Of a DNA stretch of 64,000 bases, positions 16,047-16,435 are shown one piece after another. The DNA comes from Escherichia coli (lineage in GTDB: Bacteria > Pseudomonadota > Gammaproteobacteria > Enterobacterales > Enterobacteriaceae). The DNA is taken from assembly GCF_030013205.1 (NCBI RefSeq), contig NZ_CP122648.1; one strand, written 5' to 3'. The stretch's first letter is position 1, and each line of letters begins with the position of its first letter. A program made the translations under genes and the position numbers. Below the pieces are notes generated by a model. The model saw only the letters and a list, made by a program, of their open reading frames with translations, ran no database searches and was not told the origin of the DNA.

Positions 16047-16229
16047 ATGGAAACGTTATTACCAAACGTCAATACGTCTGAAGGTTGTTTTGAAATTGGT
16101 GTCAGAATCAGTAACCCTGTATTTACTGAAGATGCCATTAATAAGAGAAAACACGAACGGGAGCTATTAAATCAAATATGCATTGTTTCAATGCTGGCCC
16201 GTTTACGCCTGATGCAAAAAGGACGATGA
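16047..16229 (+). CDS. dicB: Cell division inhibitor DicB homolog
   Basis: 60 aa METLLPNVNTSEGCFEIGVRISNPVFTEDAINKRK… closely matches K-12 DicB; AGGA SD. Confidence 0.8.
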   Translation: METLLPNVNTSEGCFEIGVRISNPVFTEDAINKRKHERELLNQICIVSMLARLRLMQKGR

Positions 16230-16231
16230 CA

Positions 16232-16435
16232 ATGAATACAGTATTTGCACTCGTTCTGACGGTTTTTCTTAATACAGGCGAGCCAGTCGATCTTGTTATT
16301 GGTATACATGACTCAATGAAAGAATGCATGGCTGCCGCAGCGGAACAGAAAATTCCCGGCAACTGTTATCCGGTTGATAAAGTTATTCGCATGGACAATA
16401 ACGAAATCCCGGCAGGACTTAAAACAGCACCGTAA
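16232..16435 (+). CDS. YdfD-like small membrane/lysis protein
   Basis: 67 aa with N-terminal hydrophobic segment; position after dicB as in Qin. Confidence 0.55.
   Translation: MNTVFALVLTVFLNTGEPVDLVIGIHDSMKECMAAAAEQKIPGNCYPVDKVIRMDNNEIPAGLKTAP

Follow-up and report, generated by a model that had tools for sequence, protein, structure and literature searches.

The intact dicB and ydfD-like genes carried by an Escherichia coli prophage remnant are, in all probability, ordinary early-left (PL-type) operon genes of a Qin/Rac-like lambdoid prophage, and their survival is most readily explained by passive carry-over, not by selection on this copy. Throughout, "the window" denotes the whole 64,000-nucleotide stretch of contig NZ_CP122648.1 that was analysed. 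A previous sequence-only reading of the window had interpreted the persistence of the two genes among decayed structural genes as a sign of selection for retention, either as host-beneficial functions or as an addiction-like module. We found both genes to be intact as described and the coordinates of that reading to be exact, in a remnant whose deletions appear recent and have removed the control region of the operon together with its repressor.

Results

dicB and its downstream partner are intact

Alignment to E. coli K-12 revealed no frameshift in either gene and bore out the assignment of both, including that of the open reading frame at 16232 to YdfD. The dicB product (METLLPNV...MQKGR, 60 aa) was free of internal stops, shared 90% identity with K-12 DicB and exceeded the cut-offs of Pfam PF05358 (E=1.5e-37, 127.5 bits against a cut-off of 27) and NCBIfam NF049927 (126.5 bits against 100). 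A GAGGA Shine-Dalgarno sequence lies 7 nt upstream of its ATG. A change of codon 61 from TGG to TGA cuts the common form of the protein (...KGRWQ, 62 aa) by 2 aa, and its residues 1-14 are those of K-12 except for K2E. The N-terminal ~14 residues are the most critical part of DicB for toxicity and MinC interaction, a variant lacking the last 8 amino acids (deltaC8) remains toxic and lethal, and the K2 substitutions examined, K2A, K2G and K2R, leave the protein active (PMC4967827). Since the C-terminus is dispensable, K2 is replaceable and the critical segment is otherwise that of K-12, the DicB of the window has likely retained activity. A sequence search of solved structures with DicB returned no match. 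Several other reading frames overlap the gene and were set aside: a 92-aa GTG-started frame, which is a known in-phase upstream extension of dicB, an 85-aa frame from 16178 and antisense frames of 109 and 74 aa, none of them in the PGAP annotation.

The ydfD-like gene begins 2 nt after the dicB stop codon (TGAcaATG) and likewise has no internal stop or frameshift. Its product matched Pfam DUF1482 (PF07358, E=6e-23, 80.9 bits against a cut-off of 25) and PHROG 1092 (4.7e-37), and aligned with K-12 YdfD at 71% identity across all 63 K-12 residues. A partner gene was found directly 3' of dicB in all 81 dicB loci with readable downstream sequence. The sequence-only reading had also called the product a small membrane protein, which was not established, as its sole hydrophobic run comprises about 11 residues (TVFALVLTVFL). 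Searching solved structures by sequence with the YdfD-like protein gave one non-significant chance match (E=0.38). The N-terminal half of the family is highly variable.

At its C-terminus the YdfD-like protein carries four residues (KTAP) beyond L63 and so differs from the lytic K-12 protein. K-12 YdfD is short (63 aa) because an additional T in CTT(T)AAA creates an in-frame stop codon; most relatives, the window included, read through to ...GLKTAP (67 aa), and in a sample of 80 loci the 67-aa form was in the majority and the K-12 form in the minority. Each length occurs on several sequence backgrounds (K-12 ydfD is at 19795-19986 of locus L003), a pattern that suggests recurrent slippage between the two. 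In K-12 YdfD, removal of the last residue (deltaC1) or the substitution L63A abolishes lysis (PMC8835842). Downstream of the gene is a weak terminator-like hairpin (Table 1), which fits the end of the K-12 transcript after ydfD (PMC10448788).

The pair lies in a deletion-shaped prophage remnant

The two genes sit in a lambdoid remnant of 20.4 kb inserted at a tRNA-Ser gene between hyaA and yccA (Table 1). The description of a heavily deleted prophage suited it well: structural genes are gone, with no terminase, portal, capsid or endolysin gene in the PGAP annotation of the remnant, and what is left of the tail region consists of partial pseudogenes (tail-fibre assembly, tail, J and tail-assembly) with a putative holin fused next to them. 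A nonsense codon interrupts the exonuclease, and the replication gene has lost its N-terminal part. PGAP further annotates a methyltransferase, Q, RusA, a DUF968 gene, several small early genes, replication protein P and a ParD/ParE toxin-antitoxin pair, the last at about the position where Qin has relBE/hokD and a relative in an O121 strain has hokD. With both att repeats, the DUF4224 gene and the integrase intact, the remnant may still be excisable, judging from its sequence.

Table 1. Features of the prophage remnant, in window coordinates
Feature	Position	Strand	Basis or remark
attL, 3' part of tRNA-Ser plus flank, 65-bp direct repeat copy	4-68	+	Exact repeat; PGAP tRNA-Ser spans the window start
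ParD/ParE type II toxin-antitoxin pair, early-right region	10141-10703	+	PGAP
DnaT-like (O-type) replication gene, N-terminus lost	14191-14664	-	Pfam DnaT PF17948, 1.1e-17; PGAP "missing N-terminus"
Deletion junction	14653-14661		Homology to K-12 and L023 starts at 14661
ydfC, first surviving early-left (dicB) operon gene	14692-14910	+	PGAP; ~97% identity to K-12; PHROG 1744
Antisense 151-aa hypothetical gene	15046-15501	-	PGAP WP_046788612.1; PHROG 1244 at 1e-51
Conserved untranslated leader, 5' part of the K-12 190-nt DicF precursor	15593-15817	+	Fold z=-2.0
Hairpin and U-tract in the DicF slot, GGCGGGTATC-loop-GATACCCGCC then CTTTTT	15818-15870	+	Terminator-like
dicB 5' leader	15870-16046	+	Weak STnc100 resemblance
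dicB, 60 aa, intact	16047-16229	+	Pfam, NCBIfam, K-12 alignment, PGAP WP_000449182.1
ydfD-family (DUF1482) gene, 67 aa, intact	16232-16435	+	Pfam, PHROG, K-12 alignment, PGAP WP_001098749.1
Weak terminator-like hairpin 3' of the ydfD-like gene	16460-16483	+	
Exonuclease (ydfE-type, Rv2179c-like 3'-5' exoribonuclease domain), pseudogene	16516-18987	+	
DUF4224 gene, excisionase-like by position	19054-19305	+	PGAP, Pfam
Tyrosine integrase, intact	19274-20293	+	PGAP
attR, second 65-bp repeat copy	20435-20499	+	yccA then at 20701

The antisense gene that encodes a 151-aa protein separates ydfC from the dicB leader and corresponds to a gap in the alignment with K-12, which lacks it. The C-terminal part of the protein contains CPQC...CPAC motifs. 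Another gene takes its place in the O121 relative, which suggests a hot spot for accessory ("moron") genes. PADLOC searches at E<=0.01 returned no family for DicB, the YdfD-like protein, YdfC or the 151-aa protein. Elsewhere in the window, the Rfam family IS009 matched 555-753 (-) with 223 bits, inside what is left of the tail-fibre-assembly gene, and this family also has a match around tfaQ in K-12 Qin (L003, 4345-4543). A PyrD leader match (97.9 bits, 47358-47431, minus strand) is an ordinary host feature far from the prophage.

Probable loss of the repressor and the operon promoter in one deletion

The window can be aligned with the K-12 dicBF operon from the final codons of ydfB onwards, with the truncated opposite-strand replication gene directly to the left of the junction. 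Missing here are a cro-like gene, a RacR-like repressor, a PL/dicBp-type promoter, ydfA and most of ydfB. The arrangement before the deletion can be read from an IMG/VR contig (L023) that is 100% identical to the window over 14661-16046 and carries upstream (119-1616) a cro/YdaS-like gene, a gene for a 158-aa RacR-like repressor, ydfA and ydfB. Between its repressor gene and ydfA lies a near-consensus TTGACA-17-TATAGT sequence that scored 14.9 with a simple sigma-70 weight matrix. On the plus strand of the window from 14400 to 16046, the best score with this matrix was 8.5, less than the best sites of shuffled sequences reached on average (10.1), and a consensus promoter scan of the plus strand upstream of dicB found no site. 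The absence of a promoter is a computational inference.

In K-12 the ydfABC-dicF-dicB-ydfD transcript starts at dicBp, 5' of ydfA, and no promoter was detected inside the dicBF operon (Ragunathan et al. 2023, PMC10448788). Possible secondary promoters 5' of K-12 dicF and dicB were proposed in an older study, as relayed in PMC10448788, and in a 2024 preprint (PMC11430063), and the counterpart of that region is still present in the window. Derepression of dicBF in K-12 causes filamentation and reduced viability (PMC5069750). The junction suggests that one deletion took repressor and promoter together, along with ydfA and ydfB, as a result of which the dicB/ydfD-like pair is probably silent, or expressed only poorly. 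Such silence of the toxic genes would in turn explain how the cell withstood losing the repressor.

Another hairpin stands in place of DicF

Canonical DicF is absent from the window. The Rfam DicF model (RF00039), which gave 76.7 bits for K-12, produced no match in the window at its gathering score or at E<=10. Both flanks of the 53-nt DicF position are conserved with K-12, including the untranslated leader, which is conserved in the O121 relative as well and is processed by RNase III/E in K-12 (PMC10448788); the hairpin between the flanks differs. Among 80 related loci we distinguished at least three hairpin types in this slot, namely K-12 DicF, GGCGGGTATC...GATACCCGCC and GGCGGCATCAG...CTGATGTCCGCC. 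About a third of the retrieved loci (~27) had the K-12 type or point variants of it and the rest had the type of the window or the GGCGGCATCAG...CTGATGTCCGCC type. The Rfam model recognised the K-12 type only, representatives of the other types being unmatched. In the window and in loci L001, L005, L004, L058, L007 and L060 the base of the stem (GGCGG/CCGCC) is constant while the upper stem co-varies.

It is conceivable, although we hold it only as a tentative idea, that the slot is an exchangeable sRNA cassette and that the type in the window is an sRNA with targets of its own; the related possibility that the pair is expressed at a low level from an unrecognised promoter is held equally tentatively. 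Duplex prediction (RNAduplex) of the hairpin against ftsZ from -80 to +40 was non-discriminating, as shuffled sequences did equally well as genuine K-12 DicF. The series of alleles in this slot is a modest lead worth keeping. Immediately downstream, the dicB 5' leader contains a CCTGG-AGGCA-CCAGG hairpin, and K-12 lacks 14 nt (AGGCCAGTTGACTT) here. Positions 15870-16024 (+) of the window matched the Salmonella sRNA STnc100 with 33.5 bits, under the gathering score of 47.

The allele is too young to record selection in this lineage

The first 21 kb of the window are 100% identical to the chromosome of the porcine enterotoxigenic strain ETEC4069, in which PGAP calls the pair dicB and a DUF1482 family protein, and nearly identical in 21 other genomes, the matches listed being pig isolates, O139:H1 among them. 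A 701-bp query around the pair hit five places in ETEC4069. The same 701 bp are 100% identical in the O121 strain RM8352 (NZ_CP028110.1), at the same att site, in a far fuller prophage that has kept terminase, holin, lysozyme and a RacR/YdaS/YdaT immunity region. Four carriers of the remnant, two from Belgium and one each from Japan and the Netherlands, share every deletion, and only 12 SNPs and 3 indels separate them over 21 kb. None of these fell within 16047-16435 (389 bp), where 0.28 would be expected. With no differences among the four carriers, a lineage-specific dN/dS could not be computed for the pair; the presence of the same allele in a fuller prophage, combined with 15 events per 21 kb among carriers, means that decay has had no time to set in and that statistical power is nil.

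A TGG>TAG change at 16738-16740 (G16739A) splits the 823 codons of the neighbouring exonuclease into reading frames of 74 and 744 aa; this nonsense mutation is private to the sublineage of the window, as L023 and three other carriers of the remnant have the full-length gene (823 aa). In one strain, ETEC6333, the truncated DnaT-like gene has lost another 88 bp (14424-14511). Together the private nonsense mutation and this deletion indicate that decay of the remnant is continuing. PGAP flagged only two genes with internal stops in ~20 kb, all other pseudogenes being partial genes truncated by deletion. As point inactivation is rare and the two open reading frames total only 387 bp, both would be expected to be intact. 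Most of the decay in this element has come through deletions, a process that a 0.4-kb segment next to the retained int-xis block can escape by chance.

Constraint is visible across the family

Across relatives, pooled Nei-Gojobori dN/dS was 0.18 for dicB (29 alleles) and 0.20 for ydfD (38 alleles), values that come from non-independent pairs and from a sample biased by the choice of loci through DicB protein similarity. Between the window and K-12 the ratios were 0.26 and 0.22, respectively. Reading frames were intact in all 83 dicB and all 81 ydfD-like copies examined, and the 60-aa DicB and the 67-aa YdfD were the commonest alleles in the 80-locus sample. In that sample the neighbouring 2.5-kb exonuclease was disrupted in 6 of 55 readable copies; at its per-base rate, 0.73 disruptions of the ydfD-like gene would be expected in 81 loci, and the zero observed is not a significant departure (P ~0.5).

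Of 5426 complete E. coli genomes, 4031 (74%) contained the pair, at 5802 places, and it also occurred in isolated phages (mEp460, Tritos, HannyBb, several vB_Eco isolates and PPompW phages). These data support purifying selection across the phage and prophage family as a whole, and the occurrence in isolated phages means that the constraint could originate with phages that use the genes themselves, with the host or with both. The argument for retention at this level is already in print: Balasubramanian et al. (2016) argued that many defective prophages have kept the toxic dicBF locus and drew a loose analogy to toxin-antitoxin systems, at a time when no sequenced phage carried the locus (PMC5069750). 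Phages with the pair have now been found.

Discussion

The step from intactness to selection that the sequence-only reading had taken is supported for the family, where dN/dS is ~0.2 and the case has been published. For this remnant, whose allele is young, whose operon promoter is lost and whose lineage offers no power, selection for retention is not supported. We propose that a few large deletions gave rise to the remnant in the recent past and that the pair would have been a small target in the block retained beside int and attR. Both dicB and ydfD had been characterised before, and the copy in the window adds nothing to the evidence on selection. What it does provide is a caution, that intact small reading frames in a young, deletion-shaped remnant do not alone indicate selection, and an illustration of how a toxic early operon can outlast the loss of its repressor if the same deletion takes its promoter.

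By analogy with the K-12 proteins, DicB, if expressed, would bind MinC and thereby block Z-ring formation, and the same interaction would stop ManYZ-dependent entry of phage DNA; in K-12 the division block runs via MinC and does not involve FtsZ directly (PMC6832061). K-12 YdfD binds IspG in vitro and in vivo and has been proposed to lyse cells by inhibiting this enzyme of envelope precursor supply (PMC8835842). The YdfD-like protein, on the same analogy, would inhibit IspG and cause division-dependent lysis that DicB counteracts.

These activities give substance to the view that the pair has been domesticated, with low or stress-induced DicB protecting the cell against ManYZ-dependent phages or modulating division under stress and the ydfD-like gene riding along by translational coupling. 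DicB confers ~100-fold resistance to lambda in K-12 once the operon is induced (PMC6832061), an internal promoter has been mentioned as possible (PMC11430063), and family-wide purifying selection, presence in 74% of complete genomes and the intactness of every sampled copy are compatible with a benefit to the host. The low power within the lineage cuts both ways. Even so, we think domestication of this copy unlikely: its native promoter and repressor have been deleted, the lineage has no divergence in which constraint could be seen, the same allele resides in fuller prophages, PADLOC found no match and the purifying selection can stem from use by phages. A related concern, that the proteins are dead though their genes are intact and that intactness is therefore irrelevant, could be built on the K2E and W61* changes in DicB and on the 29% substitutions and KTAP extension of the YdfD-like protein, in a family with a variable N-terminal half and a C-terminus so sensitive that deltaC1 and L63A abolish lysis. 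We judge this improbable, given that the last 8 residues of DicB can be dispensed with, that K2 can be substituted (PMC4967827) and that these DicB and YdfD forms are the commonest alleles of the sample and are under purifying selection.

The proposal of an addiction-like module, in which a lytic YdfD-like toxin and a DicB antidote penalise loss of the remnant, draws on the adjacency and close spacing of the genes, on the toxin-antitoxin analogy of Balasubramanian et al. and on the finding, attributed to Masuda et al. (2016) in PMC8835842, that dicB co-expression prevents YdfD-induced lysis. That rescue is indirect, operating through the halt in division, and SulA has this effect too (PMC8835842), while DicB is itself strongly toxic (PMC5069750). 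Moreover, joint loss of both genes would cost nothing, the promoter is missing in the window, and neither DicB nor the YdfD-like protein matched a toxin-antitoxin family in Pfam, NCBIfam or PADLOC. The same remnant contains a true ParD/ParE pair, a more plausible stabiliser. We consider an addiction module very improbable, and passive carry-over of an early-left operon segment remains our preferred account.

The closest characterised counterpart is the dicBF operon of the K-12 Qin cryptic prophage, ydfABC-dicF-dicB-ydfD-ydfE, which is repressed by DicA. The window shares with Qin the order ydfC, leader, dicB, ydfD, exonuclease (ydfE) and int, as well as the conserved untranslated leader and the region just 5' of dicB. 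It differs from Qin in having no dicA/dicC- or RacR-type repressor, no dicBp, no ydfA, almost no ydfB and no canonical DicF, and in carrying the extra antisense gene. The two coding regions are separated by 2 nt in the window, whereas in K-12 they overlap (ATGA), and the products differ in length in opposite directions (DicB, 60 aa versus 62 aa in K-12; YdfD, 67 aa versus 63 aa). The integration sites also differ, the remnant lying at tRNA-Ser/yccA and annotated Qin beginning at the end of ydfJ and ending near rspB. O121 RM8352 and L023 are much closer, with dicB, the ydfD-like gene and the proximal leader 100% identical and an exonuclease of the same type; RM8352 also has the same att site, with xis and int present (L023 was examined up to the exonuclease). 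Unlike the window, both have kept a RacR-like repressor, a cro-like gene, the promoter, a DUF1391/ydfA-type gene and an intact exonuclease, and RM8352 has also kept lysis and packaging genes.

The place of dicB in such an operon has parallels among other small toxic division inhibitors. Lambda Kil and Rac KilR, also encoded in PL-side early operons, block FtsZ-ring formation as part of the lytic programme; they share the operon position of DicB and are unrelated to it in sequence. In phage Evi, a Kil gene occupies the position where relatives carry dicB. YdfD, on the evidence of its K-12 form, invites a different comparison, with single-gene lysis proteins such as phiX174 E, Qbeta A2 and LysM, in that K-12 YdfD is proposed to block an envelope-precursor enzyme, IspG (PMC8835842). 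The setting is distinct, however, as YdfD belongs to the early operon of a holin-endolysin phage and not to a small lytic phage.
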